A stretch of 64,000 bases of DNA from an uncultured cyanobacterium (GCA_963744145.1 CAVUSO010000001.1:1934831-1998830); one strand, 5' to 3'; numbered from the stretch's first letter, positions 7,580 to 59,070 are shown. The notes: generated by a model from the letters alone, not told the origin. Translations and numbers: made by a program.

Positions 7580-10500
7580 ATGTCTGTCAAGTCTGAAACT
7601 ATGCTGTCATCTATTTTTACAACCTGTGATCCACGCGATGAAGTCCTTGGTGGTAACTTATCCGAGGATATTTTTGCAGCTAAACTGAAGCAAGTAGTAG
7701 ATGGTAACGCACCTTTAGTTTACCAAGATCCACAGATATTTTTTGCTAATACATTTCCTACCAACGGACTCAAAACACTTATTTCAGAAGTATTTGGACG
7801 TTTAACAGGTGTTGATACTGGTTCCCCTGTAATTCGGTTAGAAACAAGCTTTGGTGGTGGAAAAACCCACGATGAAATCGCCCTTTGGCATATTGCTAAA
7901 AATGGACGGTGTATTAGTGGGTTAGATCGATTTATTAATGACATCAATATTATTCCAGATCAGCCGATTCAAGTAGCAGCGATCGCTTGTCAAGACCTAG
8001 ATCCGGTCAATGGTGTTTTCCATGAAGAATCAGGGATAAAAATTCATACCCTTTGGGGAGAAATAGCTTATCAAATTGGTGGAATAGAAGGTTATAGTTT
8101 ACTGAGAGGTTCGGACGAGCAGAAAGTTAGCCCAGGTACAGTTGTATTAGAAAAACTGACTAAAAAAGAACCAACAGTAATTATCCTTGATGAAATCGCT
8201 CAGTATCTGCGTCGCGCTAAAGCAATTCCTATTGGTAATAGTGATCTATCTGAACAAGTAGTTGCATTTCTATTTGCACTGATGGATTTAACTGCTGCTT
8301 GTAATAATATAGTATTTGTCTACACCCTAGCATCAATATCCGATACATTTGGCACTGAAACCGCAGATATTAAAGAAGCATTACAAGCATCAGCTCGACA
8401 AGAAAGGGTACTTAGTCCTAGTACGGATATGGAAATTTACAACATTGTTAAGCAGCGGATTTTTAAGAGGATTGAGGATAAAGCTGCTGATCTTGCTGCT
8501 AAGGATTATTTTAGTGTTTACCAAAACAGTCGGTTAAATCTACCTGATAGCTGTAAAGATGCTAACTATACTCAGGTATTAAAGTCTAGCTATCCCTTTT
8601 CACCGGAACTCTTTACTCTATTAACTAAAAAAATTGCTTCAATTCCTAATTTTCAACGCACCAGAGGAGCTTTACGATTACTTGCAATGGTAGTAAGACA
8701 TCTTTGGTTGGATACATCGGTATGGATACCAATGATTCATCCCCATCATATTCCTATTGGTGTAGATGAAGGTGTCACCAGTGAATTTACTTCTCGGTTA
8801 GAACGTCCCTTAATGCGAAACCCGATTCAAGCAGATATTTTTAATCCTGATGGTAAACTTGCTCATGCTCAAATATATGATGAAGAGTGGTTAGTAGCAG
8901 GAAAACCACCTTTTACAACATGGGTAGCAAGGACTATTTTTCTTCATTCAATTAATCAAGGGACTGTCGCAGGAATTCGACGCGCTGAGTTAAATTTAGC
9001 GTTACTTACTCCCAAGATTGAGATTAGTTTTATTGAACCGGTACTAGAACGTTTGACGACTGTAGCATGGTATTTAGATATTGATCCGGTGACAACGATC
9101 GCTCGTTTTAAAGAAGAGCCATCAATTAATAAAATTATTGCTGAGGAAAAAGAACAGATTCACACACTAGCTGCTAAAGAAACTCTGCGATCGCGACGGG
9201 ATAGTATTTTTGCTAATCAAGTATTTACCTTAGTTACTAATCCGGAAAGTGCGGGAGATGTGGATGATCAACCTGATGATATTGCTCTGTGTATAATTGA
9301 CTTTGATCAAGAAACTGTATCAGCACCAACGGATGGAGTACCTCCTCTAGTAGAACAAATTTTTCATAATACCGGGGAGTCTGGTAAGTTCCGGATATTT
9401 CGGAATCGGCTGCTTTTCTTAGTAGCAAATAAACATGAATTACAACGAGCGATCGAGATTACTAAAGAATATTTGGCAATCCAAAATATTTTGAAGTCAC
9501 CAAACCGTCTCGAAGATTTGTCTGAGTATCAGCGGAAGCAACTGCGAGAAAGGAGTGGAGCTAAAGATTTAGATGTAAGAGTTTCTTTAACTAATACCTA
9601 TCGTCATCTTTTTTATCCAACTAGCGATGCTGTCAAAGCACCAAAGGGATTATTACACTTCACTTTACCCGCTGAAGCTACAGGATATATAAAAGGAAAT
9701 AAGAATCAGCAGGATGTTATTCTCAAAGCTTTAAAAGATTGCGAAAAAATTCGCAAGGAAGATTTAGCTCCTGTTGCTCCTGCTTACATTTTGCAAAAAG
9801 TTTGGTTAGCAGGAATTGATCACTGGACGACCAAAGCTTTGCGCGAAGAATTTGCTAAGAAGCTTTCTCTAAATATGCTCCTTGATGCAGATATTTCCAA
9901 ACTAAGGGAAACCATCCGCACTGGAATAGAGAAAGGTCAATGGGATTTGAAAGTTGGTAATAAAGTCTATATTCTCTCTGACGATGGAAAATTACCAAAT
10001 TTGCCAGATACAATTGAGTTTTCTGATCGGATGGAGTTATATCGACGTGGGATTCTAAAACCTCCTGAACCCCGTGTGATTGAGTTTAATGCTCAAGTTA
10101 TGTCTAGTAGTAATTTAGCTAAACCTGTTCGTCTACGATGGCGATCGCTAGGTGCTTTATCAATTCAAGTTTATCAGGATAATATCCCGCTAACTGGTGA
10201 ATTTTCACCAACAGATAATTATGAAGTTGAAATTACCCAAACCACAACTTTCAAAATTGTCGCTGACTATGGTAATGGTGAAACCGCAGAAAAAGAAACT
10301 CAGGCTACAATTGCTTCCTATTCGACCCCAATCAGTGCAAAGACTAAGTTTCATGATACACCATCAATTTTTGAGGTTAAACCTGAGATCATAGAAGAAA
10401 ATGGGACTGTTAATGCTGCTTTTACCGCATTTAGCGATCGCTGTTCTGATGACAAAGTTAAAGGAGTTAAGAGTTTAGAAATTGCGGTGGATCAGGTGAT

Positions 10501-10819
10501 GGATTATCGTCGAATTACCACGGCTTTTTCCTTAATAGGGAAATTTAATTTTTCGATTGACCAAAAAGCAACTATTCAAATAGACGAGCAGTTTGTCCGA
10601 TTAGATTATCAAGGGAAATTGCGCGGTTTTCAAGGATTTCTTACAGCAATTAATGCGCTGCTAAGTAATGATCAAGTTAGGGCAAATGTGAGTCTCAAGT
10701 TGATATTTACTTTTGATCCGGCGATCGCCCATGATAGTAATGAGTTGATCACACTACAGCAAGCACTTAAGCGCAATCCTGTAGAGCGTCTATCTCTAAC
10801 AGCGAGGGTAAGTTACTAA
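7580..10819 (+). CDS. large Walker-type ATPase, COG1483/DUF499-like (BrxC/PglY-like) defence-associated protein
   Basis: Walker A SFGGGKTH and Walker B VIILDEIAQY near the N-terminus. About 1080 aa. TAATG stop/start overlap with the next ORF. Genomic association with a DUF1156 MTase and SNF2 helicase. Confidence 0.6.
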   Translation: MSVKSETMLSSIFTTCDPRDEVLGGNLSEDIFAAKLKQVVDGNAPLVYQDPQIFFANTFPTNGLKTLISEVFGRLTGVDTGSPVIRLETSFGGGKTHDEIALWHIAKNGRCISGLDRFINDINIIPDQPIQVAAIACQDLDPVNGVFHEESGIKIHTLWGEIAYQIGGIEGYSLLRGSDEQKVSPGTVVLEKLTKKEPTVIILDEIAQYLRRAKAIPIGNSDLSEQVVAFLFALMDLTAACNNIVFVYTLASISDTFGTETADIKEALQASARQERVLSPSTDMEIYNIVKQRIFKRIEDKAADLAAKDYFSVYQNSRLNLPDSCKDANYTQVLKSSYPFSPELFTLLTKKIASIPNFQRTRGALRLLAMVVRHLWLDTSVWIPMIHPHHIPIGVDEGVTSEFTSRLERPLMRNPIQADIFNPDGKLAHAQIYDEEWLVAGKPPFTTWVARTIFLHSINQGTVAGIRRAELNLALLTPKIEISFIEPVLERLTTVAWYLDIDPVTTIARFKEEPSINKIIAEEKEQIHTLAAKETLRSRRDSIFANQVFTLVTNPESAGDVDDQPDDIALCIIDFDQETVSAPTDGVPPLVEQIFHNTGESGKFRIFRNRLLFLVANKHELQRAIEITKEYLAIQNILKSPNRLEDLSEYQRKQLRERSGAKDLDVRVSLTNTYRHLFYPTSDAVKAPKGLLHFTLPAEATGYIKGNKNQQDVILKALKDCEKIRKEDLAPVAPAYILQKVWLAGIDHWTTKALREEFAKKLSLNMLLDADISKLRETIRTGIEKGQWDLKVGNKVYILSDDGKLPNLPDTIEFSDRMELYRRGILKPPEPRVIEFNAQVMSSSNLAKPVRLRWRSLGALSIQVYQDNIPLTGEFSPTDNYEVEITQTTTFKIVADYGNGETAEKETQATIASYSTPISAKTKFHDTPSIFEVKPEIIEENGTVNAAFTAFSDRCSDDKVKGVKSLEIAVDQVMDYRRITTAFSLIGKFNFSIDQKATIQIDEQFVRLDYQGKLRGFQGFLTAINALLSNDQVRANVSLKLIFTFDPAIAHDSNELITLQQALKRNPVERLSLTARVSY

Positions 10820-11247
10820 TGCAAGAGTTTCAATTAAGGGTTGTCCCGACAGATAACAATAATTTTGCTTTAGAATTATATCAATGTGCTTATAAGCAAG
10901 CGGGAGCAAAAAAACGTCCTGCTGCTAAACGGATTGGTAAAATTAAGGGTAATGCTTTGGTACTGACTAGACAGATGATCTATACAGTGCTGAAAACTAA
11001 TAAATATGATCCGAAAACTTTGAAATGCGATCGCCAAACGCCCTATATCCTTGATGAACAGTCAGGAGTAAGTTTAGCTTTGCTATTTCAAACAGTGCAA
11101 CCACTCTCAAAAGAAGACCGAATTGCTAACATTGCTAATGGTGTAATGGCGATGAGTAATGAGGAGGCACATTATTGGTTTGCTAAAGTTTCTAATGGGC
11201 ATAAAAAAAATGCACTCAAAGCGATTCGGGTGCTGTTGGGTGATTAG
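10819..11247 (+). CDS. small basic protein translationally coupled to the DUF499-like ATPase (possible DUF3780-like system component)
   Basis: ATG overlaps the upstream TAA (TAATG). Lys/Arg-rich. No recognisable catalytic motif. Confidence 0.4.
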   Translation: MQEFQLRVVPTDNNNFALELYQCAYKQAGAKKRPAAKRIGKIKGNALVLTRQMIYTVLKTNKYDPKTLKCDRQTPYILDEQSGVSLALLFQTVQPLSKEDRIANIANGVMAMSNEEAHYWFAKVSNGHKKNALKAIRVLLGD

Positions 11248-11278
11248 ATAAAAATTTTATAAACAATCGGAGAAAATC

Positions 11279-11998
11279 ATGATCGCTCCCACCAATCCCC
11301 GCCGCATCACCATTCCACCGCTAGAAAATGGCGATTTACTCTCCTGTCAAGAATTTGAACGGCGCTACACAGCTATGCCCAATCTCAAAAAAGCTGAACT
11401 AATCGAAGGAATTGTTTATATGGCTTCACCTTTACGGTTTGAACCCCATGCTGAACCTCATGCTGATTTAATTGGCTGGTTTTGGACTTACAAAATTAGT
11501 ACCCCTGGTGTGCGTCTAGGTGATAACCCCACTGTCCGTCTAGATGTGGATAATCAACCCCAGCCCGATGCGGTGTTGTTGATTGATACCCAAAAGGGAG
11601 GTCAAAGTTGCTTAAGTGATGATGGCTATATCAAAGGTGCGCCAGAACTTGTGGCTGAAATTGCTGCTAGTACCGCGACGATCGATCTACGGGACAAAAA
11701 GCGAGTTTATTGTCGCCATAGAGTTAAAGAATATTTAGTTTGGCAGGTAAGCGATGACCGCTTCGATTGGTTCTGCTGGCAAAATGGAGAATACATTGCT
11801 CTTACTCCTGATGCAGAAGGAATTATCCGCAGCCAAGTTTTTCCTGGTTTATGGTTAGCAACTTCAGCACTGCTAGCGGGAGATATCCCCCAAGTTATTG
11901 CTACCTTGCAAACTGGATTAGCAAGCACTGCCCATCAACAGTTTGTCCAAAAATTAGCCACCTTTTCTAACCACAATTCTGAAACGGGTAAAAAATGA
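11279..11998 (+). CDS. Uma2-family (DUF820) PD-(D/E)xK endonuclease
   Basis: Motifs ELIEGIVYMASP, PDAVLL, PELVAEIAASTATIDLRDKKRVYCRHRVKEYLVWQV typical of cyanobacterial Uma2 proteins. ATGA overlap with the next gene. Confidence 0.7.
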   Translation: MIAPTNPRRITIPPLENGDLLSCQEFERRYTAMPNLKKAELIEGIVYMASPLRFEPHAEPHADLIGWFWTYKISTPGVRLGDNPTVRLDVDNQPQPDAVLLIDTQKGGQSCLSDDGYIKGAPELVAEIAASTATIDLRDKKRVYCRHRVKEYLVWQVSDDRFDWFCWQNGEYIALTPDAEGIIRSQVFPGLWLATSALLAGDIPQVIATLQTGLASTAHQQFVQKLATFSNHNSETGKK

Positions 11999-12582
11999 TT
12001 ACTGTACCTAATAATCAAAAACTCTCACCTGATGAATATTTTGCATGGGAATCACAGCAAGAAATCCGTTATGAATATATTGATGGTAAGGTATTTGCAA
12101 TGGTAGGAGTAACGATAGCCCATAGCACGATCGCTACTAATTTGATTGCTTTACTGCGACCACATTTACGGGGACGAAATTGTCGAGTATTGGGGTCAGA
12201 TGCGAAAGTGGGTATTTCTCCAAGTGGTGAATTTTTCTATCCAGATTTATTGGTAACTTGTGACGATCGCGATCGCAATTTTGCTAAGGCGGTATTTTAT
12301 CCAAAGCTGATTATTGAGGTATTATCCCCTAGCACAGAAGCATACAATCGCGGTGGTAAGTTTGCGCGTTATCGACAGTTAGCAAGTTTGAACGAATATG
12401 TGTTAGTTAGCTCGGAAAGTATTGGGGTTGAGGTATTTCGGCTTAATGAGCGGAGCAAGTGGGAATTAACACCCTTTGGGGTTGGGGATTTGGTGCAGTT
12501 TGCTAGTATTGAATTTGAATGCGCGATCGCTGCAATTTATGAAGACGTGGATTTTTTAGAATACAGCGGATTCGGTGGCTGA
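11995..12582 (+). CDS. Uma2-family (DUF820) PD-(D/E)xK endonuclease
   Basis: YEYIDGKVFAMVG, YPDLLV, PKLIIEVLSPSTEAYNRGGKFARYRQLASLNEYVLV are Uma2 hallmarks. Confidence 0.75.
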   Translation: MITVPNNQKLSPDEYFAWESQQEIRYEYIDGKVFAMVGVTIAHSTIATNLIALLRPHLRGRNCRVLGSDAKVGISPSGEFFYPDLLVTCDDRDRNFAKAVFYPKLIIEVLSPSTEAYNRGGKFARYRQLASLNEYVLVSSESIGVEVFRLNERSKWELTPFGVGDLVQFASIEFECAIAAIYEDVDFLEYSGFGG

Positions 12583-12892
12583 TGAAGTACAGTAAGATTT
12601 GGCATGAATGGTGGGACAGGCATCTTGCCTGTCAGAGATTGTAAGTGATCTGTGTTGGTTGGGCAGGTTTATGATAGTTATCTGTTTGGAGCAGAATTGA
12701 TTGGTGAACCTGCCCCTACAAATCCTGTTAATCTTGTAATCCTCTCATCCTGATCGATTTTTTGGTAAATCCCTGTAGGGGCGGGTTCACCGATGAACTT
12801 GCCACACACAAATAACCCTTGTGCCGAGCGCAGTCGAGGTATTAATGAACCCGCCCTGCCCCACAGATCACCTTGATGAACTTCATAAACCT
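12583..12892 (+). repeat. MITE-like dispersed repeat (GGTGAACCCGCCCCTAC core family), about 310 bp copy with nested inverted repeats
   Basis: Contains ggtgaacctgcccctacaaatcc ... ctgtaggggcgggttcacc and gatctgtgttggttgggcaggtttatgat ... aacccgccctgccccacagatcacc pairs. Direct copy at about 17895-18160, inverted partial copy at about 14014-14165. Confidence 0.7.
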
Positions 12893-12922
12893 GGAATAGG
12901 CTGTAACCATTGAAGCTGTACA

Positions 12923-13369
12923 TTATTTAGTTTCTGTAAGCAATTGTTCTAGAGTCTCAGGAAAATCACCATTAAAAACCATGCGAGAGAATACATTGTA
13001 ACAGTCATTTTTATCGCCTTCTTTGCGTGGAAATCCTAGCCAAAGAATAATCAAAACCTTACGATCATCTGCTTCAAAAGCTCGAAAAAATAAACGGTAG
13101 CGATCGCTTAGTCCCATACCCTTTAAGCGTCCGTAATGTCTGAGGGAACCTTTGAGGGCAAATTGAGGTGCAAAGGGATCAAGAACTATTTTCTCTTTGA
13201 TCCCTATCATCACTGCGGCTAGTAATTTAACGGTGGGATGTTTGACAAATTCTTCCCTAGGGAGACTGAGTTTTAGTTGGTTAACTTGTGCCTTTAGTTG
13301 TCGTCTTTGTTCCCCAAATAAGTTGTCATGGAAGTAGATTTCCCAGCCATTACGGACGATGACGCTCAT
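12923..13369 (-). CDS. yhaV: type II toxin, YhaV-family ribonuclease-like
   Basis: About 148 aa. 4 bp overlap with an upstream AbrB/SpoVT-type antitoxin. Size, arrangement and sequence character match PrlF/YhaV modules. Confidence 0.5.
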   Translation of the reverse strand: MSVIVRNGWEIYFHDNLFGEQRRQLKAQVNQLKLSLPREEFVKHPTVKLLAAVMIGIKEKIVLDPFAPQFALKGSLRHYGRLKGMGLSDRYRLFFRAFEADDRKVLIILWLGFPRKEGDKNDCYNVFSRMVFNGDFPETLEQLLTETK

Positions 13370-13695
13370 GGGTCAAGCTCAACTCCTGCAAGAAGTTCAT
13401 CATCTTCCTGGGCCATTGCTTCTGTATAGGCTTCTAACTTATCGCTATTTTTGAGAGCATCTTTGGTGATGAAGTCCAGAAATAAACTCAACATTAAATT
13501 ATCGTCTTCTTCTTCCTCATCTGCTTCAGGTGTAACTGGTTCAAGCTTTACCAACAAAGTATTATCAGGTAGCACTTTCACCCATCCAGTAGCATTGGCA
13601 AATTGGGGGTTGTCATGATAAAACGAGGCTGGCAATCTAAAGCCTAAAGAGTTGCCAATTTTGGCTGGTGAGAGGGTGTAGGTTTTGGAACTCAT
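13366..13695 (-). CDS. prlF: type II antitoxin, AbrB/SpoVT (PrlF-like) with acidic C-terminal tail
   Basis: N-terminal swapped-hairpin motif IGNSLGFRLPASF. Acidic C-terminus (EADEEEEDD). Overlaps the toxin start. Confidence 0.55.
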   Translation of the reverse strand: MSSKTYTLSPAKIGNSLGFRLPASFYHDNPQFANATGWVKVLPDNTLLVKLEPVTPEADEEEEDDNLMLSLFLDFITKDALKNSDKLEAYTEAMAQEDDELLAGVELDP

Positions 13696-14013
13696 ATATG
13701 TTAGTACAAATTGTAATAACGATAATGCTATACTAGCACGAAAGTTTAAGGTGGTTACAATCTAGGTATGGACAAGTTCAATCTATGAAAATTCGGGAGT
13801 TATGAGCGATCGCTATTTCTATGCTTGAAAGCTATAGACAAAATAAATATATTAAATTTTAACCATCTCCGTTAGTCAGATGGGGTGGATTCATCCATGT
13901 GATCTGTAAGGTTGGGCGGTGCAATTGTATGACCAAGGGAATAATTTCCAAACAATCAAGATTAAATTAGATGATCAGAATAGATGGTCGATAAATTTAT
14001 GATTACAATTAAC

Positions 14014-14165
14014 CAGGATTTGTAGGGGCGGGTTCACCAATTAATTTTGTGACAAACCGATCACCATTATAAACCCGCCCAACCAACACAGATCAATCAC
14101 AATCGACTTTAACTGATCGGACAGGCAAGATGCCTGTCCCACAATCTTACTGTACTTCATCAATA
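14014..14165 (-). repeat. MITE-like dispersed repeat, partial inverted copy
   Basis: tgtaggggcgggttcacc ... aaacccgcccaaccaacacagatc ... gacaggcaagatgcctgtcccacaatcttactgtacttcatca is the reverse complement of the 12583-12650/12700 segments. Confidence 0.65.
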
Positions 14166-14499
14166 TAGAAATCCGCTGTAAATCAATCAATTTCCTCTCT
14201 AATCTCATATTCACCTTGGGGATATCGCACCAATATCTCATCAGCTAAACATCCTGCTGTCTGTTCAAAAAAACTAGAAGGCCAGCCTAATTCTTCAGAA
14301 GTTTGAGGTGGAGTTTGATTGCTCAAATCGTTCATGATATTTTCTGGTAGATGATGAGCAAAATCAGGATAAATTATTATTTTACTAAATTTAACCTACT
14401 TTATAGGTCGGCACAGATTCCCATGATGCTATAGTATAGCAATTACCCAGGAAAGTCAAGGGGTAATTTCTTTTTACTTCACTTACTCGAAAATTAATT

Positions 14500-17436
14500 A
14501 TGACTAACCCTAGTTCCCAGCGTCCTCAAGTTTTTATTGAAAAAATTATGCCCGTGAAGTTACTCAACGAGCAGGTATATTACGAACATGGGGGTAATCC
14601 GTTTAAGGGTTTACATCGGTGGTATTCGCGCAAACCTTTGTCCTTTAGTCGAGCCAGTGTGTTAGCTTCCTTGTTACCTGGGGATGTGACGATCGAGGAG
14701 TTTAAATATCTGTTAGGTTTGTACCCAGAACAAGAAGGTTTAAAACCAGATCCTGATATTAAGCTGTATAAAACACCTCCTGGTAAATTGAGAATTAAAA
14801 AGGTGCAGGATTATTGTGAAAAATTGTGGGGAACTCGAACTCCTACAGTTTTAGATGCGTTTGCAGGTGGTGGGAGTATTCCCTTTGAAGCAGCAAGATA
14901 TGGGTTTAATGTATTAGCATCGGATTTGAATCCTGTTGCAGTTGTGACAATGAAAGCTGCGATGGAATATCCCCTAAAGTTTGGACCGGATTTGCAGCAG
15001 GATATTGATCAATGGGTGAAGTGGGTAGGTGATGAAGCCGAGAAACGGTTAGCTGAGTTTTTCCCTTCTTTACCTGGGGAAACTGTACAGAATTATCTGT
15101 GGGCGCATACAGTGGTTTGTCCGAATTGTGAATCGGTTGTACCTTTGAGTCCGAATTGGTGGTTATATAAACGTCCAGAAAAGCAGAATTTACATAAATG
15201 GTGTGCAGTAAAGCCAATTCCTAACATTGAGAATAAGCGGGTTGATTTTGAATTGGTGAAGGGGAAGAAGGGAAAAGGAACAACTATTCAAACTGATGAT
15301 GGGGAATATGATCCTGATACTACAACTACTATTGGTCGAGGTGTTGGTAGATGTCCTAATTGCGACAATGTGATCGAAGATGATGTAATTAAATCTCAAG
15401 CGCAATCAGGTATTTTAGGACATCAACTTTATGCAGTTGCTTATAAAAAAGGTAAAGGAAGTTTAGAATTTAGAATTCCCGAAGAATTAGATTTAGAAGG
15501 AATTGATAAATCTCAATGTTATTTAAAATCACAATTTTTGGAAATTCAAGCTAATGGTATTTTGCCTGATGTTGCAGTTACTCATGGACAAGAAACTGAA
15601 AGATTATTCTCAATTGGGATTGATAGCTGGTACAAATTCTTTAATCCACGCCAACTTTTAACACTTGTTACATATTTAGAAATTATCAATGAAGCAAAAG
15701 CACTAATTCAGACTAAATGTGAAGAAGAAAAAGAAACAGCGATCGCTAAATTAAAATCTAATCCAGAAGTAGAGGATATCCAGAGGGCGATCGCAAATAT
15801 TGAATCCTACTATCAGAATAAAATTGAGGCGATCGCCACTTATTTAGCTTTGGTATTTGATAGATGTGTTGACAGAAATTCTAGGCTTGGACATTGGCAT
15901 TCAGCTAGAGGCTATGCAGAGATAGCAATGGCTCAACATTCTCTAAATCTAAATTGGAATTATCCTGAAACTAGCGGTGCAGGTGAACTCTGGCAATCAT
16001 GCGCTGATGCCTTTATATCAGATTATCAAAATCTTTGTGCCTTATTCGGAACTAAACCAGATTCAACAGGTATTTTAGGAATAGAACAACACAATCTCAA
16101 ATCCATTCAAATTGATTCAGCATCTGCTGACAGTCTAACGCATATTCTTGATAACTCAGTAGATGCAATTATCACCGATCCACCTTATTACGCAACCATC
16201 CAATATGCGGAACTATCAGACTTTTTTTATGTCTGGCAAAAACGCACCCTCGGCGATATCTTCCCCGATCTCTTCTGGATGGAACTTACAGACAAAGATC
16301 GCGAAACTGTAGCCAATCCTTCACGCTTTCGCAACATGGGAGCATCCCCCGAAGAACTCGCCAACCAAGACTATGAAGCAAAAATGGCAATGGCATTTGC
16401 TGAATATCATCGTGTCTTACGAGAAGACGGAGTAATGACCGTGCAATTCAATCACAAAGAATCAGGAGCATGGGATACCCTAGCATATTCCTTAATTAAT
16501 GCAGGTTTCGAGATCACCGCATCATGGTCAGTCAGCACCGAAAACCCCCAAAACCTCCACCAAGCCCAAAAGAACTCCGTCGCTAGTACAGTATTACTCG
16601 TGTGCCGCAAACGCGACCCCAACGCTGAACAAGCCTGGTGGGATGACCTCCGCCCCGAAGTCTCCAACCTAGTCGAACAACGCGCCCCAGAATTTGAAGC
16701 CAATGATATTCAAGGGATTGACCTTTATCTCAGCGCCTTTGGTCCGGCCCTCAACGTCTTCTCCCGCTCCTGGCCAGTTCTTGATAGTACAGGTAACGAA
16801 GTCCGCCCCGAAGTTGCATTTGCTGAAGCTCGCAAAGCTGTTGCTAACTACCGCTTCCGCAAACTCGCTCAAACCGACACAATGGGTTTTGACCCCGTTA
16901 CCCAATGGTATTTTCTCGCTTGGGATGCTTTCCGCGCCCGCGAATTTCCCTTTGATGACGCTCGACAACTTGCCCTAGCAGTAGGTGGTTTCAATGTCGC
17001 AGACCTAGGAAAAAGCTACAAAATCCTCGACATCAAAAGCGGTACTTGTAAATTCCTCAGCCCCGAACAACGCTACAAAAAACACGCATTCTCGATCGCA
17101 GACAATGAATTTTCTGCCCGTTATCTCATTGACGGACTCCACGCGATCATTGCTATCTATCAACAAGAACAAACCATCGAACCAATCCGCCGTTTTATGA
17201 AAGCCACAGAACTAATCAGCAATGATAAGTTTATGCGAGCTTGGGAAATAGCATTAAAAGTTATCCCTCGCATCGGAGACGATCGCAAACGCATCCCCGA
17301 AGAAAAAGCCTTATTAAATTTATGGTTAGCAATGGATGAAATCAAAGCCAAAGTAGTTTATGTGCAGCAGGAATTGCTTTTAGGACCTGGACAATTGACT
17401 TTAGATTTAAAAAGTGTTATTGATGAAGATAAATAA
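14500..17436 (+). CDS. DUF1156 / COG1743 Zn-ribbon N6-adenine DNA methyltransferase (defence-associated)
   Basis: N-terminal GGNPFKGLHRWYSRKP (DUF1156 signature). Zn-ribbon CPNCES...CPNCDN. Motif IV DPPY (IITDPPYYATIQY). Confidence 0.8.
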   Translation: MTNPSSQRPQVFIEKIMPVKLLNEQVYYEHGGNPFKGLHRWYSRKPLSFSRASVLASLLPGDVTIEEFKYLLGLYPEQEGLKPDPDIKLYKTPPGKLRIKKVQDYCEKLWGTRTPTVLDAFAGGGSIPFEAARYGFNVLASDLNPVAVVTMKAAMEYPLKFGPDLQQDIDQWVKWVGDEAEKRLAEFFPSLPGETVQNYLWAHTVVCPNCESVVPLSPNWWLYKRPEKQNLHKWCAVKPIPNIENKRVDFELVKGKKGKGTTIQTDDGEYDPDTTTTIGRGVGRCPNCDNVIEDDVIKSQAQSGILGHQLYAVAYKKGKGSLEFRIPEELDLEGIDKSQCYLKSQFLEIQANGILPDVAVTHGQETERLFSIGIDSWYKFFNPRQLLTLVTYLEIINEAKALIQTKCEEEKETAIAKLKSNPEVEDIQRAIANIESYYQNKIEAIATYLALVFDRCVDRNSRLGHWHSARGYAEIAMAQHSLNLNWNYPETSGAGELWQSCADAFISDYQNLCALFGTKPDSTGILGIEQHNLKSIQIDSASADSLTHILDNSVDAIITDPPYYATIQYAELSDFFYVWQKRTLGDIFPDLFWMELTDKDRETVANPSRFRNMGASPEELANQDYEAKMAMAFAEYHRVLREDGVMTVQFNHKESGAWDTLAYSLINAGFEITASWSVSTENPQNLHQAQKNSVASTVLLVCRKRDPNAEQAWWDDLRPEVSNLVEQRAPEFEANDIQGIDLYLSAFGPALNVFSRSWPVLDSTGNEVRPEVAFAEARKAVANYRFRKLAQTDTMGFDPVTQWYFLAWDAFRAREFPFDDARQLALAVGGFNVADLGKSYKILDIKSGTCKFLSPEQRYKKHAFSIADNEFSARYLIDGLHAIIAIYQQEQTIEPIRRFMKATELISNDKFMRAWEIALKVIPRIGDDRKRIPEEKALLNLWLAMDEIKAKVVYVQQELLLGPGQLTLDLKSVIDEDK

Positions 17437-17450
17437 GTGAAGCTAAAATT

Positions 17451-17774
17451 ATGAAAATTAAAGGTATTAAACGCGGTATCATGATTGAATTATTTGAAGA
17501 AATCGATATTCCTGATGGGATGGAAGTGATGGTTGAAATTCAAAATAGTCATCCTCTTGCAGGACTAAGTAAAGAAGAAATTCAAAAACGGATCAATAAA
17601 GTAGCAGGAGTCTGGAAAGACGATCCAGAAATTGAGCAAATCTTTGCAGAAATAAATCAAGAACCTTTGGAAATTGAGCGATCGGCTACAACCATCTCGC
17701 AACGAATGAAGCAATTTGCCCAAGATGGTATTGATCTAGATGCTAAAGAAGGCTTAACACAATTGAGAGAATAA
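17451..17774 (+). CDS. hypothetical small protein downstream of the MTase
   Basis: ORF 14 nt after the MTase stop. A partial duplicate of its 5' end (MKIKGIK...) follows at about 17769-17885. Confidence 0.35.
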   Translation: MKIKGIKRGIMIELFEEIDIPDGMEVMVEIQNSHPLAGLSKEEIQKRINKVAGVWKDDPEIEQIFAEINQEPLEIERSATTISQRMKQFAQDGIDLDAKEGLTQLRE

Positions 17775-17894
17775 AATCATGAAAATCAAAGGTATTAAAC
17801 AGGGTGTAACAGCGGTAGATCGTGGCAACCCAAACGCGATCGCGCAATTTAGTCATAAAACTGAATTACCACAAAAATACAGCGGATGACCCGT

Positions 17895-18160
17895 TGATGA
17901 AGTACAGTAAGATTTGGCGCTAATAGCGATAAGTTAAAGTCAATTGTGATTGATCTGTGTTGGTTGGGCGGGTTTATGATGTTGATCTATTTGTGTCAGA
18001 ATTAACTGGTGAACCCGCCCCTACAAATCCTGGTTTATTGTCCTCATAAATTCATCGACAATACATTTTTATGAGCTAGTAGGGGCGGGTTCACCGCTGA
18101 ATTTGCCACACACAAATAACTTTAATAAACCCGCCCAACCTCACAGATAACCTTGATGAA
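17895..18160 (+). repeat. MITE-like dispersed repeat (same family as 12583-12892)
   Basis: tgatgaagtacagtaagatttgg ... gatctgtgttggttgggcgggtttatgat ... ggtgaacccgcccctacaaatcctgg ... gtaggggcgggttcaccg ... aacccgcccaacctcacagataacc. Confidence 0.7.
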
Positions 18161-18300
18161 AACTACCCCATCTTACATCACAGACAACACTGCTATACTT
18201 CATAAATAGGTCATACGCTAGATCTCATCCAGATTGAGAGTCTTTAAAATGTCACAAGGCACATCAAAGATAACGATGCTGGACTTTTAAGGTATTTTTT

Positions 18301-21300
18301 ATGAAAAAATTGCGCGATCGCTATTGGAAAATCGGTTATGGTAGTGATGAAGATAACCTAATCGTTGATTTTTATATCCCGGCTCTTGAATGTGCCCTCC
18401 AATACGATCGCAAAGCCGGATTTTTTAATAGTACCATACTCAGTCGCGTCGCCAGAGGATTAGGAGCATTATTAGCAAATCAAGGACGAATGCGCTTAAT
18501 TATGGGTTGTCAGTTTTCTCCTGAAGACTTACAAGCGGTTCAACAAGGTTACGCATTACGAGAAACCCTAACTCATCGACTAGATCAAGAACTTACTCCA
18601 CCTGTCAACTTTGCCCAGCTCAAACATTTTGAAATCCTCAGTTGGTTGATTCAAAATGAATATCTCGATATTCGCATTGCAATTCCCCTCAAACCTAATG
18701 GTAATCCTGAATCCTCAGAATTGGTATTAGATCCAAAGCATTTATTTCACGAAAAAGTAGGCATTATTTCCGATGTAAATGGCGATCGCCTAGCTTTTAA
18801 TGGTTCCAATAATGAATCAATCGGTGGATGGCAATCTAACCTAGAATCATTTCATGTATTTTTTTCCTGGGATGGTGGTAGCGATTTACAAAGAGTACAA
18901 CATGAATGCGATCGCTTTGAGCGTCTTTGGAATGATGAACTTCCCAATGTGCGAGTATTTGAAATTCCTACAGCAGTAAAACAAAAACTATTAAATTATA
19001 CCCCAAACCAAAAACCCGACTGGAATCCGCAAGCAGAATTTAATACCAGCCCCATCACTTATTTAGAAACAATAAATGAGTTCCAAATCTCTGAAGAAGA
19101 ACTACAAAAAGAACGAGAACAATTTACCCAACTTGCTAATATTCATCACCATCCTGGTTGTCTAGACTTCTCAGTTAAATCAATTCCCATCAAACCTTGG
19201 GCACATCAACTAAAAATCTTGCGACGGATAGCAGCAGAGTTTCCCCGTAATGCTTTAATTGCTGATGAAGTAGGTTTAGGTAAAACCATTGAAACCGGTT
19301 TAATATTGCGTTACTTGCTGCTCTCGAAAAAAGCAACGCGAGTGTTAATTTTAGTACCAGCTAGTGTACAACCTCAGTGGCAAGAAGAAATGCGGGAAAA
19401 ATTTAACTTGCACTTCTGGTCCTATGGCAAAAATGAACTGGTTGATCCGTACCAACAATCAGTCGCGATCGCCGGAAATCTTTGGAATCAGAAAAACCTG
19501 ATCCTTGCATCTAGTCATCTAGTCAGACGCAAAGAACGAATGCAAGAATTACTAAACTCTGAAGCATGGGATTTAATCGTTTTAGATGAAGCACATCACG
19601 CAAGAAGAAAAAGCCCTCAAAATCACAAAGATACTCCCAACCGTCTACTTGAACTAATGGAGCGTCTGAGAACAAATACTCAAGCTTTGCTACTCCTTTC
19701 TGCAACACCAATGCAAATTGATGCGATCGAAATGTTTGATTTAATCAAGTTACTTGGTTTAAAAGGTCATTGGGAATTTCCTGATAATTTTTGTCATTAT
19801 TTCGCCACTCTATCTGAATCACCTAATAAAGATATGCTCAACTTTTGGCAAACCATGTCTACAGATTATTTTGATCATGGTGGTCAGCCTTGTAGTAAAA
19901 TTCAGAAAGGATTAGAAACTAGCGATCGCCTGTTATTTTATCAACTTGAGGATATTTGGCGCAATGGTCAGAAAATAACTAATCCTCAGAAATATCTAGC
20001 CGATGATAATTTTATCAGTGCATCTCAAAGATTTCTGGCAACTAATACACCGATTAAAGACTTAATGTTTCGCCACACCCGCGATACATTGCGAGAATAT
20101 TTTAAACGTGGTTTATTAGCTCAAGATGTACCGATAAGAGAGGTATTTGATCATGCAATTGCTCTCGAAGCAAATCGCGAAGTTCATCTCTATATTGCTG
20201 TTAGTGATTACGTGCGACATTTTTACCGTCTCGCGCAAAAGGAAAACCGCAAAGCCCTGGGTTTTCTAATGACCCTATATCGTAAACGTCTCACCAGTTC
20301 TTTCTATGCGATCGAGAAATCATTACAACGTAGATTAGATTATTTACTTACTCAACAGGGTAGCTTATTAGGAGATGATGACTACAGCGATCTAGAAGAT
20401 GCCGATGATGCTATTATTGAAGGCTTAGAATCCTTCATGGAACCCATAGATCCAAAGGAAATTGAATATTTACAAGATTTATTGCATCAATTTGACAATA
20501 CAGGGGAAGATACCAAGCGATCAAAATTTATCAACAAATTAAGACAAGAATTCTTAGAGCGTGATAGTGCGATCATCTTTACCCAATATACCGATACAAT
20601 GGACTATTTGCGCGATATCTTAACTCAATTATATGGTTCATCAGTTGCCTGTTATTCAGGAAGGGGTGGAGAAATCAATTATGATGGTAAATGGCAAATT
20701 ATCCCCAAGGAAGAAATCAAAAGACGGTTTCGTGATGGGGAAATTAAAATCTTGCTATGTACCGAGTCAGCTAGTGAAGGGCTAAATTTACAAACTTGTG
20801 GAGTTTTATTTAATTATGATATGCCTTGGAATCCGATGCGAGTGGAGCAGCGGATCGGACGGATTGATCGGATTGGTCAAAAATTCTCTCAAGTCAGAAT
20901 CCATAATTTTTACTATGACGGAACAGTAGAAGCAAAAGTCTATCGTAAATTGCGCGATCGCATCCAAGCATTTACCACAGTAGTTGGTAATCTGCAACCC
21001 ATCCTCGCTCTTGTACCTACTTTTATTGAAAAAGCAGTAATGAGTGCCGATCCCTTAGAAGAAAATGTCTTGCTGTCGGAATTTGAGCAAACTTTGGATA
21101 TATCACCTTTACAACCTGCACTTAATGATGCTGTCGCAATGGATGTGGAAGCCGATCTTACTGAACTTCGTCAACCAATCCCATCATCTCCCTTTAATGC
21201 TGAAATAATCGAACAGGTTTTGACGCGATCGCGACTATTACAGAAAGCCGGAATTAGGTTTGAGAAGATCGCAGAAAAGCTGTGGAAATTACAATTAGAA

Positions 21301-21426
21301 GATCAATCTTATCAAGTTACCTTTTATGCCGATACTTTTGACGAACATCCATCTTTGCGATTAATGACTTTTGGTGATCCTATTTTTGAGCTCCTGTTGC
21401 ATAAACGTTTAGCGTCAGCAACCTGA
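18301..21426 (+). CDS. PLD-family nuclease domain fused to SNF2/DEAD-like helicase (defence-associated)
   Basis: HxKxxxxD motif (HEKVGIISD) at the N-terminus. Helicase motifs I (DEVGLGKTIE), II (VLDEAHHARR), III (SATPMQ) and C-terminal helicase block (LLCTESASEGLNLQ, QRIGRIDRIGQ). Confidence 0.8.
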   Translation: MKKLRDRYWKIGYGSDEDNLIVDFYIPALECALQYDRKAGFFNSTILSRVARGLGALLANQGRMRLIMGCQFSPEDLQAVQQGYALRETLTHRLDQELTPPVNFAQLKHFEILSWLIQNEYLDIRIAIPLKPNGNPESSELVLDPKHLFHEKVGIISDVNGDRLAFNGSNNESIGGWQSNLESFHVFFSWDGGSDLQRVQHECDRFERLWNDELPNVRVFEIPTAVKQKLLNYTPNQKPDWNPQAEFNTSPITYLETINEFQISEEELQKEREQFTQLANIHHHPGCLDFSVKSIPIKPWAHQLKILRRIAAEFPRNALIADEVGLGKTIETGLILRYLLLSKKATRVLILVPASVQPQWQEEMREKFNLHFWSYGKNELVDPYQQSVAIAGNLWNQKNLILASSHLVRRKERMQELLNSEAWDLIVLDEAHHARRKSPQNHKDTPNRLLELMERLRTNTQALLLLSATPMQIDAIEMFDLIKLLGLKGHWEFPDNFCHYFATLSESPNKDMLNFWQTMSTDYFDHGGQPCSKIQKGLETSDRLLFYQLEDIWRNGQKITNPQKYLADDNFISASQRFLATNTPIKDLMFRHTRDTLREYFKRGLLAQDVPIREVFDHAIALEANREVHLYIAVSDYVRHFYRLAQKENRKALGFLMTLYRKRLTSSFYAIEKSLQRRLDYLLTQQGSLLGDDDYSDLEDADDAIIEGLESFMEPIDPKEIEYLQDLLHQFDNTGEDTKRSKFINKLRQEFLERDSAIIFTQYTDTMDYLRDILTQLYGSSVACYSGRGGEINYDGKWQIIPKEEIKRRFRDGEIKILLCTESASEGLNLQTCGVLFNYDMPWNPMRVEQRIGRIDRIGQKFSQVRIHNFYYDGTVEAKVYRKLRDRIQAFTTVVGNLQPILALVPTFIEKAVMSADPLEENVLLSEFEQTLDISPLQPALNDAVAMDVEADLTELRQPIPSSPFNAEIIEQVLTRSRLLQKAGIRFEKIAEKLWKLQLEDQSYQVTFYADTFDEHPSLRLMTFGDPIFELLLHKRLASAT

Positions 21427-36888: not shown

Positions 36889-37116
36889 ATGTTGACTTTG
36901 CAAGAAATTATTAAGTCTATTGATAGTCTGTCTATAAACGATCAGCAATATTTATTTGAGTTTCTGCGTAAAAAGCAGGAACAGCCTAAAGCAAATAATT
37001 TCTGGGCGGGTTTACAAAAATTTAGACAGACAATTCAACGTGAGGGAATTGTTTTTACTGATGAAGATTTTGCGGATTTGCGCGATCGCAGTCCTGGGAG
37101 AGAAATCGATCTATGA
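36889..37116 (+). CDS. type II antitoxin (VapB-like, uncharacterised family)
   Basis: 75 aa ORF immediately upstream of a PIN-domain gene, with 4 nt overlap. Confidence 0.5.
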   Translation: MLTLQEIIKSIDSLSINDQQYLFEFLRKKQEQPKANNFWAGLQKFRQTIQREGIVFTDEDFADLRDRSPGREIDL

Positions 37117-37544
37117 GTTTGAAGTTTTTACTTGATACAAATATCCTCTCAGAACCATCACGTCCTATTCCTAATGCTAATGTTCTAGCCAAATTAGATA
37201 TTCATCAGTCAGAAATTGCTGTCGCTAGTGTGGTTGTGCATGAGCTTTTACATGGTTGCTTGCGTTTACCAGAGTCAAAAAGACGAGAAAATCTTTGGGA
37301 ATATATTAATGAATCAGTTTTAAATTTACCAATTCTAAGTTATGATCTACATACGGCGCAGTGGCACGCGAATGAAAGGGCGAGGTTATCGAAGATTGGT
37401 AAAACTCCTGCATTTGTGGATAGTCAGATTGCGAGTATTGCTTACAGTAATAATTTAATTTTAGTGACTAATAATGTGCCTGATTTTCAGTTTTTCGATA
37501 GTTTAAAGATTGAAAATTGGTTCGTTAGTGGTGAGGATGGCTAA
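37113..37544 (+). CDS. vapC: PIN-domain ribonuclease toxin VapC
   Basis: N-terminal LLDTNIL PIN signature. About 143 aa. Coupled to the upstream small ORF. Confidence 0.75.
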   Translation: MSLKFLLDTNILSEPSRPIPNANVLAKLDIHQSEIAVASVVVHELLHGCLRLPESKRRENLWEYINESVLNLPILSYDLHTAQWHANERARLSKIGKTPAFVDSQIASIAYSNNLILVTNNVPDFQFFDSLKIENWFVSGEDG

Positions 37545-38381: not shown

Positions 38382-38557
38382 GAAGATACATTGATGTATA
38401 TTGATCTGTGGGTGAGGGTGGGTTTTGATGATTAGTAGGTAAATGTCAAACATCTCGGTGAACCCGGGCGGGTTTTTCTAATTAATTGGTAAATTTCAAA
38501 AATCTGGGCGAACCCGCCCCTACTACAGAAATCCGCAAATTGAGGATAAAATTGGTA
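38368..38557 (+). repeat. left half of a MITE-like element split by IS insertion
   Basis: Identical to 58765-58957 (...gaggataaaattggtag). Continues at 40288 after the IS. Confidence 0.75.
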
Positions 38558-40290
38558 GATACTGTCTTGATTTGTCAAGGGGTAGCGATCGCCAAATTGC
38601 CTAATTAGGGTCAAAGAGTTTAGCAGATTTGAAAATCGCCAAAATATGGTTAGGGATTTTACCATTAAAGCACTAATCTCCTGGATTTTTACCTGACCCA
38701 CGCAGCCATCATCTCTCACTCATTAATGGGAGTAATGAGTGGTGAAGCATCGTGACTGTGGGCAGAAAGGCGAGCATTTTTGGCACTGGAAACCCGACGG
38801 ATTGACCCTAACTATAGAGCCACCGTTTGTTCACCCATACTGGGAATAGAAGTCAACCAGTTCCGTAGTTGTTTAAGCGAGATCCTCTCGATGCACAGTC
38901 GTCAGTTTCGTCTGTTCATCTTGGTTGAGGGATGAACATGTTCTGGTGGCGAGATTTCGCCCGCCAGATCCCATCTAGACGGGTAAAGGGGTAGCGCTCG
39001 CATAATTGGGGTCAAAAGGTGTTTGGGATTTTAAAATCCCAAACGCCAAATGTAGGAGTTTTCGCATCAGGGCTCCAACCACCTGCATTTTCACCTTGCC
39101 ACGCTCCAATAATCGCTCACTCATTGCCTTGAGTAATGGGTTATGACTCATCGCTACTACGGCGGGCATATAAGCGCGCTTTTCGCAGTCGAGTATTGCC
39201 TATACAAGACAAGCGAGTTTTACCATGAACTGAAGTTCCTGAACTCCGCTCGCAGGGATTTAACCCAACATAAGCAACTAATTGGCGGGCATTTTTATAA
39301 TCGGTAATCCGACCAATTTCAGCTAACAATACAGCCGCAGTTTGTTCGCCAATTCCCGGAATTGAAGTCAACAGCTCACGTTGTTTTTTCAAATGGGGAT
39401 GTTGGTCAAAATGGTCGCGAATTAATTGTTTGATCTCAGCTTGTTGTTGGGCGAGATATTCTAGATGCTTTCTCGTTATCAGCGCGACAGATTCGCTCTC
39501 GGTTTCGAGCCGATTCTGCTCCTGTTGCGCGATTTCGATGAAGGATTCTAGTCGTCTGAGTAGGGCTTGTAATTCCTTAACTTCCGGTGCTGTTGGTTTC
39601 CAAAATGACGGCTTCATCGCCACACAAAAACGCGCAATTAAGCCTGCATCTACCGCGTCGGTTTTCGTTCGCAGGAGTTCACTTTTGGCAAATCCTTTGA
39701 TCCGCGCTGGATTAACGATACTTACCTGATAACCAGCCTGGTAGAGGAATTCAGCTAATGCTTCCCCATAAATACTGGTCGCTTCTAAGCAAGCATGAAG
39801 TTCTACCACACCTTGACATTTGAGCCATTGTGCTAAACTTTCAAACCCTTCTAGATCATTAGTAAACTTTTTTGGTTTTGGCTTTTTCCCACAGTCCAGT
39901 TTCAATAAAACGACATGAAAGTCTTTTTTACTGATGTCTATTCCTAAGACTGTAGATGTCATAAGTTTCTCCTGATGTCGAGTTGATGGGTGAGAACTTG
40001 ACAGACATTAAACTAACCTTGTTAATACAGGCTATCTCGTGACCACGAGTGCCTTAGATACTGTCGAGTTTTCTGTGCGTCTGTCATCAGCGACTGGGAG
40101 CTTATCTACAAAACAGACTTATGAGGTCTGAGGGGCGGGCCAACTTCACCACTTGCTGATGTTCTTCAGCACACTTTCTCATCTCTACTGAGCTGAGGTC
40201 GAAAACTTTTCTAGTTTCTTTAGATTTCTCACTAATCCTTGATGTACCTGCATCTTGGTAGTCCAATTATCTGTATCCTTTAAAGATACA
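38558..40290 (-). mobile_element. IS110-family insertion sequence (about 1.7 kb) inserted into a MITE-like repeat copy; carries a partially duplicated 3' segment
   Basis: Transposase gene on the minus strand. Insertion point defined by comparison with the uninterrupted repeat at 58765-59070 (ggtag|gggcagg). 38560-38960 resembles the transposase 3' end (GQVKIQEISALMVKSL... versus GKVKMQVVGALMRKLL...). Confidence 0.7.
38975..39962 (-). pseudogene. IS110-family transposase, frameshifted (273 aa N-terminal ORF plus 64 aa C-terminal ORF)
   Basis: N-terminal DEDD_Tnp_IS110 (LGIDISKKDFHVVLL). Transposase_20 (IPGIGEQTAAVLLAEIG). C-terminal LLERGKVKMQVVGALMRKLLHLAFGILK in a different frame. Frameshift in the gcgcgc run near 39150. 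Confidence 0.75.
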
Positions 40291-40410
40291 AGGGGCAGGT
40301 TCACCAGTCAATTTTGCTACCAACAGATCACCATTATAAACCTGCCCTGACTTAACAGATCAACCTCAGATTAAGTGCAATTTCATAGTTAATTGGTATC
40401 AGCACCACCA
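40288..40410 (+). repeat. right half of the MITE-like element split by the IS
   Basis: gggcaggttcaccagtcaatttt...caacagatcaccattataaacctgccctg...tcaacctcagattaagtgcaatttcatagttaattggtatca matches 58958-59066. Confidence 0.75.
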
Positions 40411-58764: not shown

Positions 58765-59070
58765 GATACCAATTCACCATGAAGATACATTGATGTATAT
58801 TGATCTGTGGGTGAGGGTGGGTTTTGATGATTAGTAGGTAAATGTCAAACATCTCGGTGAACCCGGGCGGGTTTTTCTAATTAATTGGTAAATTTCAAAA
58901 ATCTGGGCGAACCCGCCCCTACTACAGAAATCCGCAAATTGAGGATAAAATTGGTAGGGGCAGGTTCACCAGTCAATTTTACCACCAACAGATCACCATT
59001 ATAAACCTGCCCTGGCCTAACAGATCAACCTCAGATTAAGTGCAATTTCATAGTTAATTGGTATCACCTC
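58765..59070 (+). repeat. intact about 300 bp MITE-like element (reference copy; equals 38368-38557 plus 40288-40410 joined)
   Basis: Continuous identity to both flanks of the IS110 insertion. Confidence 0.8.

Follow-up and report, generated by a model that had tools for sequence, protein, structure and literature searches.

In a 64,000-nt stretch of the chromosome of an uncultured cyanobacterium (GCA_963744145.1 CAVUSO010000001.1:1934831-1998830; the window in what follows), a pair of genes for a YhaV-family toxin and its antitoxin lies between two inverted copies of one repeat, at a junction within an Hma-like defence operon. The layout mimics that of a composite transposon, and was so read in an initial annotation of this DNA. 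The simplest account, and in our judgement the probable one, is that a toxin-antitoxin cassette and independently inserted copies of the repeat have become juxtaposed in a permissive junction. The elements of the arrangement are the following (MITE stands for miniature inverted-repeat transposable element, REP for repetitive extragenic palindrome, and REPIN for a REP doublet forming a hairpin).

12562..12905, + strand: left repeat copy, a 344-bp palindromic MITE/REPIN-like element
12923..13369, - strand: YhaV-family toxin gene, 148 amino acids (aa), PF11663
13366..13695, - strand: antitoxin gene, 109 aa, upstream of the toxin gene and overlapping its start by 4 nt
13696..13738, - strand: conserved upstream leader, 43 bp, the limit of the part common to homologous cassettes
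~13875..14180, - strand: right repeat copy, inverted, its inner side decayed
17878..18215, + strand: third repeat copy, full, 3.7 kb downstream of the right copy, in the gap that separates the PLD/SNF2 helicase gene from the DUF1156 methylase region

The flanking inverted repeat exists, far above chance. It is apparent on reading the sequence between 12300 and 14500, and repeat detection resolves it into three pairs of arms: 12580-12599 with 14143-14162 (20 nt, 100% identical), 12608-12636 with 14117-14145 (29 nt, 93%) and 12637-12727 with 14014-14104 (91 nt, 86%). In motif searches, 0 matches to the repeat blocks are expected in shuffled sequence. The initial annotation's proposition that the two flanks represent a single repeat in opposite orientations is borne out when they are aligned: the arms agree at 86-100% of positions, and both of the sequence strings that it quoted are present.

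The boundaries have moved outward. Alignments place the start of the similarity between left and right copies at TACAGCGGATT, which is found at 12562 on the left and, reverse-complemented, at 14170-14180 on the right; this onset is 18 nt ahead of the first matching arm and lies outside the left boundary first drawn. An 8-nt variable spacer separates TACAGCGGATT from an invariant 20-mer, TGATGAAGTACAGTAAGATT (block A). The left copy ends at 12905, as set by paralogous copies elsewhere in the source genome. (This 3' terminus was located indirectly: paralogues of a spurious open reading frame (ORF) of the element align from the codons TAC AGC, at window position 12905.) The left copy, formerly placed at 12583-12892, is therefore where it was said to be, with new limits of 12562-12905. 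The right copy is partial and inverted, as had been proposed, with an extent of ~13875-14180 that goes beyond the 150-bp fragment (14014-14165) first recognized. The outer termini of the flanking pair (12562-12599 and 14143-14180) are identical in their 11-nt and 20-nt blocks (11/11 and 20/20).

Anatomy and distribution of the repeat

At 344 bp, non-coding and bounded by terminal inverted repeats (TIRs), the element resembles a MITE, and its first description as MITE-like holds for a multi-copy, non-coding sequence with inverted termini. Its parts, referred to the left copy unless otherwise stated, are:

12562-12573: 5' TIR, TACAGCGGATTC
12580-12599: block A, 20 nt
12613-12633: nested small hairpin H, a perfect hairpin, GGGACAGGCATCTTGCCTGTC
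~12647-12722 and 12774-12872: two inverted ~70-nt GTAG-tagged core units, head-to-head, each with TGTAGGGGCGGGTTCACC
12894-12905: 3' TIR, GAATAGGCTGTA
14170-14180, 14143-14162, 14120-14140 and 14014-14104: intact parts of the right copy (outer TIR, block A, hairpin H and proximal core unit, respectively)

The TIRs of the element (TACAGCGGATTC and, as reverse complement, TACAGCCTATTC) are 10/12 inverted repeats. The termini can be written TA-CAGCGGATTC...GAATAGGCTG-TA, each opening with the dinucleotide TA, and the left and third copies have TA at both start and end. Head-to-head doublets of TGTAGGGGCGGGTTCACC are found by motif search at 12703-12720 (-)/12774-12791 (+) and at 18008-18025 (-)/18078-18095 (+). 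In the right copy the interior has been replaced: the inner core arm and inner terminus are gone, the distal core unit is represented by its outer arm only (13890-13919), and similarity to the third copy fades at ~13875. The left copy is predicted to form a long hairpin as single-stranded DNA (-59 kcal/mol, z = -5.2), and the third copy, its long palindrome intact, folds at -72 kcal/mol (z = -10.8). The right copy folds weakly (z = -2.5).

The copies are mosaic. Hairpin H is common to the left and right copies, at the same position, and missing from the third; a 15-nt segment is common to the right and third copies and absent from the left; the inner core arm is common to the left and third copies and absent from the right. 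Core identities in alignments are 85-86% (left/right), 89% (right/third) and 78% (left/third), and the left and right copies have different, large indels. One candidate interpretation, that the two arms are halves of a single palindrome split by the toxin-antitoxin pair, was rejected, each arm being a near-full element.

The ORFs of the element are spurious; their sole relatives are other copies in the source genome. A spurious 81-aa ORF in the left copy has 8 paralogues; every one of them lies on the source contig (7,634,710 bp) but outside the window. Together with the 3 copies in the window, this amounts to at least 11 copies of the element in the 7.63-Mb source chromosome; the left copy has nearer kin elsewhere in that genome than the right copy is to it, at 91% aa identity over the spurious ORF. 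Outside the source contig, 5.8 billion protein clusters hold no relative of the spurious ORF, and in 185,579 species genomes the exact block A 20-mer has a single match, a chance one (Halobacillus). The element has no blastn match among plasmids, block A has none in viral contigs, and the repeat has no family in Rfam (a sub-threshold microRNA match is a chance one). By these searches the full element is restricted to this genome.

Several smaller observations concern the parts of the repeat. A hairpin of the form N-ACAGGCATCTTGCCTGT-N' is an independent, dispersed small repeat, present in the window at 12613-12633 and 14120-14140 and in many cyanobacterial contigs; 18 sites of hairpin H are found in metagenome loci L016, L020, L027, L032, L034, L065, L100, L117 and L124. 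Its closing pair covaries (G-C, A-T, T-A, C-G), suggesting selection on the hairpin itself. In two copies of the core unit, at 40247-40363 and 58950-59065, block A is replaced by a different ~50-nt 5' module common to both, TGATACCAATTAACTATGAAATTGCACTTAATCTGAGGT; the family is thus built of modules, and its end modules can vary. Inside the helicase gene, at 21154-21173 (-), there is a 20-mer resembling block A with 3 mismatches, TGACGAAGTTCAGTAAGATC, and no other part of the repeat adjoins it; by our own estimate the window should contain ~0.004 such 20-mers by chance. Outside the window, the source genome has two spurious ORFs (P0242 and P0245) that agree over 29 aa beyond the terminus of the element, and the element copies concerned are therefore part of a larger segment that is duplicated or repeated.

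The core unit has a much wider distribution. The pattern GGGCRGGTTTAT-N25-35-GGTGAACCYGCCCCTAC occurs in more than 120 metagenome contigs among the matches listed, and the resemblance of these contigs to the element of the window is confined to the ~70-nt core unit. A consensus built from 140 metagenome units reads GTTGGGTGGGGGCGGGTTTAT...GGTGAACCCGCCCCTACAG, and a profile search finds 255 core units in 0.94 Mb of the pattern-matching contigs. In one of them (L047:1368-3146, metagenome contig Ga0209591_10064382) arrays of core units stand on both sides of a Y1_Tnp gene (1845-2384, 180 aa, IS200-like and RAYT-like, E 4e-9; RAYT denotes REP-associated tyrosine transposase). This REPtron-like layout suggests that the core unit is a cyanobacterial REP/REPIN.

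REP/REPIN elements are mobilized by RAYT tyrosine transposases (PMC3116915). GTAG-tagged REPs include the cyanobacterial families GTAG-12/15/16 (PMC3733652), and filamentous cyanobacteria are known to have GTAG-tagged REP/REPIN-like elements (PMC3733652, PMC3116915). The core unit is placed with these because it has GTAG adjoining a G+C-rich arm (TGTAGGGGCGGGTT...AACCCGCCC), forms head-to-head hairpin doublets and occurs in the arrays of L047; like them, it is abundant in cyanobacterial contigs. It differs from them in that its arms are ~40 nt apart, longer than typical REP loops. The 344-bp element, for its part, has extra modules and TACAG...CTGTA termini of its own, and no RAYT gene is found in the window. 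The window does hold an IS110-family transposase gene (39141-39962, -; 273 aa, possibly truncated) that matches DEDD_Tnp_IS110 and Transposase_20, and a core-only REP-like copy (40291-40363) is ~330 bp away. IS110-family elements have been reported to target REP-like sequences (PMC3184786).

The toxin-antitoxin cassette and its homologues

The toxin matches PF11663 over profile positions 1-137 of 138 (148.8 bits against a cut-off of 35; E 1.3e-43). The antitoxin is PrlF-like at its C-terminus, below threshold in both applicable models (PF15937, 20.1 bits against 32; NF007429, 23.8 bits against 125), and at homologous loci for which upstream sequence is available a gene of 108-130 aa is called directly upstream of the toxin gene. 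Judged by sequence, the gene pair is an ordinary type II toxin-antitoxin system of the YhaV/PrlF type. The initial annotation had its coordinates right (12923-13695); of its designation as PrlF/YhaV-like, the YhaV part stands firmly and the PrlF part is reduced to the sub-threshold C-terminal match. Like E. coli PrlF/YhaV, the pair has a toxin with a full-length YhaV domain and an upstream antitoxin gene with a 4-nt overlap and a PrlF-like C-terminus. Unlike it, the antitoxin scores under both curated thresholds and the cassette is chromosomal, within a defence operon. A PDB sequence search with toxin and antitoxin found no solved relative. The GC content of the region (~42%, against a background of ~39%) is not diagnostic.

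Homologues of the toxin number 481. The closest (85-89% aa identity) come from metagenomes and from metagenome-assembled genomes labelled Leptolyngbyaceae, Pseudanabaena and Snowella; the closest relatives of the toxin-antitoxin pair belong to other cyanobacterial orders. At six homologous loci blastn similarity spans 12922-13738 only, that is, the two genes and the 43-bp leader (13696..13738, probably the promoter/operator). No inverted repeats surround the homologous cassettes at any of these six loci, where contexts are tight, intergenic and population-stable. Its spread among cyanobacteria thus proceeds independently of the repeat. The proposal that MITEs mobilize addiction cassettes, for which the initial annotation had suggested looking for the same repeat around toxin-antitoxin genes of other cyanobacteria, is not supported by this comparison. 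The source contig contributes a single toxin to the set of homologues; the toxin-antitoxin pair is single-copy, and the repeat-cassette-repeat unit is consequently not duplicated in the source genome. Comparison of the region with plasmids yields weak matches to the toxin gene only.

A second toxin-antitoxin-like pair is present in the window at 36889-37544 (+), where a 75-aa ORF overlaps a 143-aa PIN-domain gene in VapBC-like fashion. This pair is not bracketed by the repeat; the closest fragment of a core unit is ~900 bp downstream (38440-38600).

Junctions of the host operon and origin of the arrangement

The juxtaposition that we favour can be described as follows. An 815-bp cassette (leader, antitoxin and toxin) would have been acquired horizontally. 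It now occupies the variable junction between the DUF7680 and DUF1156 genes, where a ~340-bp non-autonomous, lineage-specific palindromic repeat is represented on either side of it by a diverged member, the two being arranged tail-to-tail. The repeat copies would have inserted separately, in permissive DNA directly past the ends of neighbouring ORFs (no order is assigned to these insertions and the arrival of the cassette), and the third copy would have entered the next junction. The family may be thought of as recently expanded, genome-specific and MITE/REPIN-like, put together from GTAG-tagged REP-like hairpin units and nested small hairpins. The transposon-like layout that results would in principle be mobilizable by a cognate transposase, or invertible by recombination between its arms; this analysis gave no sign of either mobilization or inversion of the toxin-antitoxin segment.

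The operon that harbours the arrangement has these features:

7580..21426, + strand: Hma-like defence operon (PADLOC, Pfam, NCBIfam)
7580-10819, + strand: DUF499 ATPase
10819-11247, + strand: DUF7680
11995..12582, + strand: Uma2-family gene, putative restriction endonuclease, PF05685 E 1.2e-36
14183..14335, - strand: 50-aa ORF with no family match, its stop codon 2 nt off the outer end of the right repeat copy
14500-17436, + strand: DUF1156 methylase
18301-21426, + strand: PLD/SNF2 helicase

It is Hma-like in that its ATPase, methylase and helicase genes are all in one operon, with PADLOC matches to HmaC (6e-103), HmaB (3e-78) and HmaA (6e-63)/PLD_Helicase (1e-75); NCBIfam anti-phage models match it below their curated cut-offs. 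The setting was thus correctly recognized at the outset as a defence island. Small genes and repeats break the operon at two junctions. The first, from DUF7680 to DUF1156, contains two Uma2 genes, the left repeat, the toxin-antitoxin pair, the right repeat and the 50-aa ORF. The last 7 codons of the Uma2 gene (YSGFGG and the stop) come from the left repeat, which begins at 12562. The second junction contains the third repeat, preceded by a 107-aa ORF and by a duplicate, itself truncated, of the start of that ORF. In related operons, DUF4365 genes are found between DUF7680 and DUF1156 (Dolichospermum) and upstream of DUF1156 (in a relative with 76% identity, which also has a Uma2 gene between DUF1156 and the helicase). 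The presence of the third copy at the neighbouring junction, and of foreign genes at the same junction in relatives, indicates that these junctions tolerate insertions.

Core units elsewhere likewise favour separate insertion. In the 0.94 Mb of metagenome contigs there are eight cases of two core units separated by 0.4-3.5 kb, evenly divided between inverted and direct orientation (4 and 4); HicAB, a DUF433 gene, a DUF29 gene and the RAYT-like gene are each enclosed by one such pair. (HicA/HicB lie between direct core units at L012:313-1401, and DUF433 between inverted units at L026:298-1199.) Small genes of the toxin-antitoxin type and core units do recurrently occupy the same variable DNA in other cyanobacteria, with random orientation, and joint movement is not indicated.

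What the analysis establishes is the make-up of the locus, the families to which its genes belong, the number of repeat copies and their restriction to one lineage, and that homologous cassettes lack the repeat; independent insertion of the copies, like the chemistry of their transposition, is what we infer. The TACAG...CTGTA ends recall elements of the IS630/Tc1 type, of which target duplication of TA is a trait. All termini in the window are TA, and this 2-bp repeat, identical at all copies, is compatible with TA duplication without proving it. The core units, on the other hand, point to a RAYT-type transposase as a candidate for the mobilizing enzyme.

Four points weigh against separate insertion. 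Three copies within 5.7 kb are more tightly spaced than uniform scatter would have them, unless the genome holds hundreds. Nested hairpin H, which the left and right copies share at the same position and the third lacks, makes the flanking two one subfamily, as would be expected of copies with a shared origin and of the arms of a composite alike. The outer termini agree exactly, whereas decay has set in at the inner end of the right copy, as if only the outer ends mattered. Finally, no close relative offered an empty site for comparison: the best non-self DUF1156 orthologue is at 76% aa identity, and the 90% cluster of the window's PutA protein has no other member.

The first three of these have a ready interpretation if 12562-14180 is a 1.6-kb MITE-based composite transposon that brought the toxin-antitoxin pair into the operon as one unit, with the transposase acting in trans. 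The copies are inverted, with TACAGCGGATT and block A intact on both outer sides, and between them is the cassette alone with 17 bp of spacer on one side and ~136 bp on the other. Pairs of MITEs in Pseudomonas can mobilize the DNA between them (TIME-COMP, PMC4133298), and other cyanobacterial contigs have HicAB and a DUF433 gene standing between core units of a related kind. So far as bracketing by copies with intact outer termini goes, the architecture has the form that the initial reading gave it, that of a small composite transposon. Insertion in one piece is another matter: neither the unit nor the toxin-antitoxin pair has a second copy in the source genome, homologous cassettes elsewhere do without such repeats, the flanking copies are ~14% diverged with large indels, and the repeat is limited to this genome, yet the closest relatives of the toxin-antitoxin pair are in other orders. 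No transposase with matching ends is found in the window. The TA duplication does not discriminate, as in silico excision makes clear. The TAA stop of the Uma2 gene is restored by removing either the left copy alone with one TA kept (...GAA TAA CCATTG) or the whole of 12564-14180 (...GAA TAA ATCAATC); the junction of the Uma2 gene with the 50-aa ORF that is expected where 12564-14180 is absent as one piece is GAATAAATCAATC. Source-genome toxin matches and the six homologous loci provide no second context of the unit that would speak for its movement, and the flanking TA dinucleotides are uninformative. That the cassette arrived as one such unit we hold to be unlikely, and a functional transposon of the MITE-COMP type, with the toxin-antitoxin module as sole cargo and movement by a trans-acting transposase through the TACAGCGGATT/block-A termini, is equally so. 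If it were true, the unit would be a minimal vehicle seeding cyanobacterial defence islands with addiction cassettes, and the HicAB and DUF433 genes between related REP-like units would be further instances.

The elements may alternatively have been kept because they are useful, their hairpins serving as transcript insulator, terminator or RNA-processing site, so that selfish genes inside the operon would be tolerated without polar effects and the bracketing of the toxin-antitoxin pair would be a by-product. All 3 copies begin 0-20 nt from the stop of a co-oriented ORF (Uma2, 12582; 50-aa ORF, 14183; truncated ORF, 17890), two have strongly predicted hairpins (z = -5.2 and -10.8), and REPs are reported to lie mostly downstream of coding regions and to be possible RNA elements (PMC3733652). 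Co-orientation of 3 in 3 has, however, a chance probability of ~1/8, the elements show neither a detectable intrinsic terminator signature nor a match to an Rfam family, and the palindrome of the right copy is decayed; such a function is accordingly a decidedly improbable explanation. It is very improbable that the inverted arms matter as substrates of homologous recombination, making the segment invertible or exchangeable between repeat-sharing strains: repeats are known to drive rearrangement (PMC3184786) and the arms offer ~190 nt of inverted similarity with exact runs of 20-23 nt, but ~86% identity with a longest exact run of 23 nt is poor for RecA-dependent exchange, and identical short metagenome contigs of ERR11571142 have the present orientation alone, with no other arrangement seen. 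The ends of these contigs (12901-13857 and 11688-12590) were weighed as possible marks of the repeat borders and set aside, since the run has the look of a low-coverage metagenome.

Further observations relate to the operon. At the second junction the truncated duplicate (17771-17890, +) of the start of the 107-aa ORF (17451-17774; MKIKGIKQGV vs MKIKGIKRGI) continues into the third repeat and takes its final codons and stop from it. At the equivalent of the first junction in Dolichospermum (L145:7886-9001 vs L146:8446-9001) there is an array of ~80-bp tandem units, unrelated in sequence to the repeat of the window, that differs in length by ~560 bp (seven units) between the two strains. Within the DUF1156 gene, GC content rises to 50-54% at 16400-17000 (~39% background), and a second DUF1156 protein of the source genome (P0122, 1226 aa) aligns with only 53% of the query, at 84% identity. 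Taken together, the two are a hint that the DUF1156 methylase is recombinant or mosaic.

Related systems and significance

The best-studied counterparts of the arrangement are the TIME-COMP elements of Pseudomonas, made of Tn3-derived miniature elements (TIMEs; PMC4133298), and the integron-mobilization units (IMUs), or MITE-flanked integrons (PMC3184786). Here as there, two short non-coding inverted-repeat elements, which may be inverted relative to each other, flank a small cargo that lacks a transposase, and mobilization would need one in trans. The TIME-COMP and IMU elements were captured while transposing, have 5-6 bp target duplications, and are flanked by copies with identical 38-bp inverted repeats that match known Tn3-family transposons (PMC4133298, PMC3184786). 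In contrast, the flanking copies of the present case are diverged, its duplication is uninformative, and the window holds no transposase with matching ends.

The repeat itself also resembles the nested small dispersed repeats of Nostoc, of which Elhai et al. reportedly gave an account in 2008, as well as the cyanobacterial MITEs Nezha, MaeMITE and those of Anabaena (summarized in PMC3184786). The likeness is one of features: a length of 130-435 bp, TIRs, and hairpins predicted to be stable; a position between genes or at their ends; many copies, restricted to a lineage; and larger repeats with small hairpins nested in them.

If movement of the unit were demonstrated, the unit would be a compact natural case of non-autonomous repeats carrying toxin-antitoxin modules into defence loci, and would extend MITE-composite mobilization, as exemplified by the Pseudomonas TIMEs and the integron-mobilization units, to cyanobacteria. 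The repeat family, lineage-specific, modular and derived from widespread GTAG-tagged units, may be of modest interest for studies of REP/RAYT evolution. As it stands, the locus shows something more ordinary: selfish DNA (Uma2 genes, a toxin-antitoxin pair and three repeat copies) is tolerated, and gathers, at the junctions of a defence operon, and in a repeat-rich genome juxtaposition alone will at times yield a transposon-like architecture.

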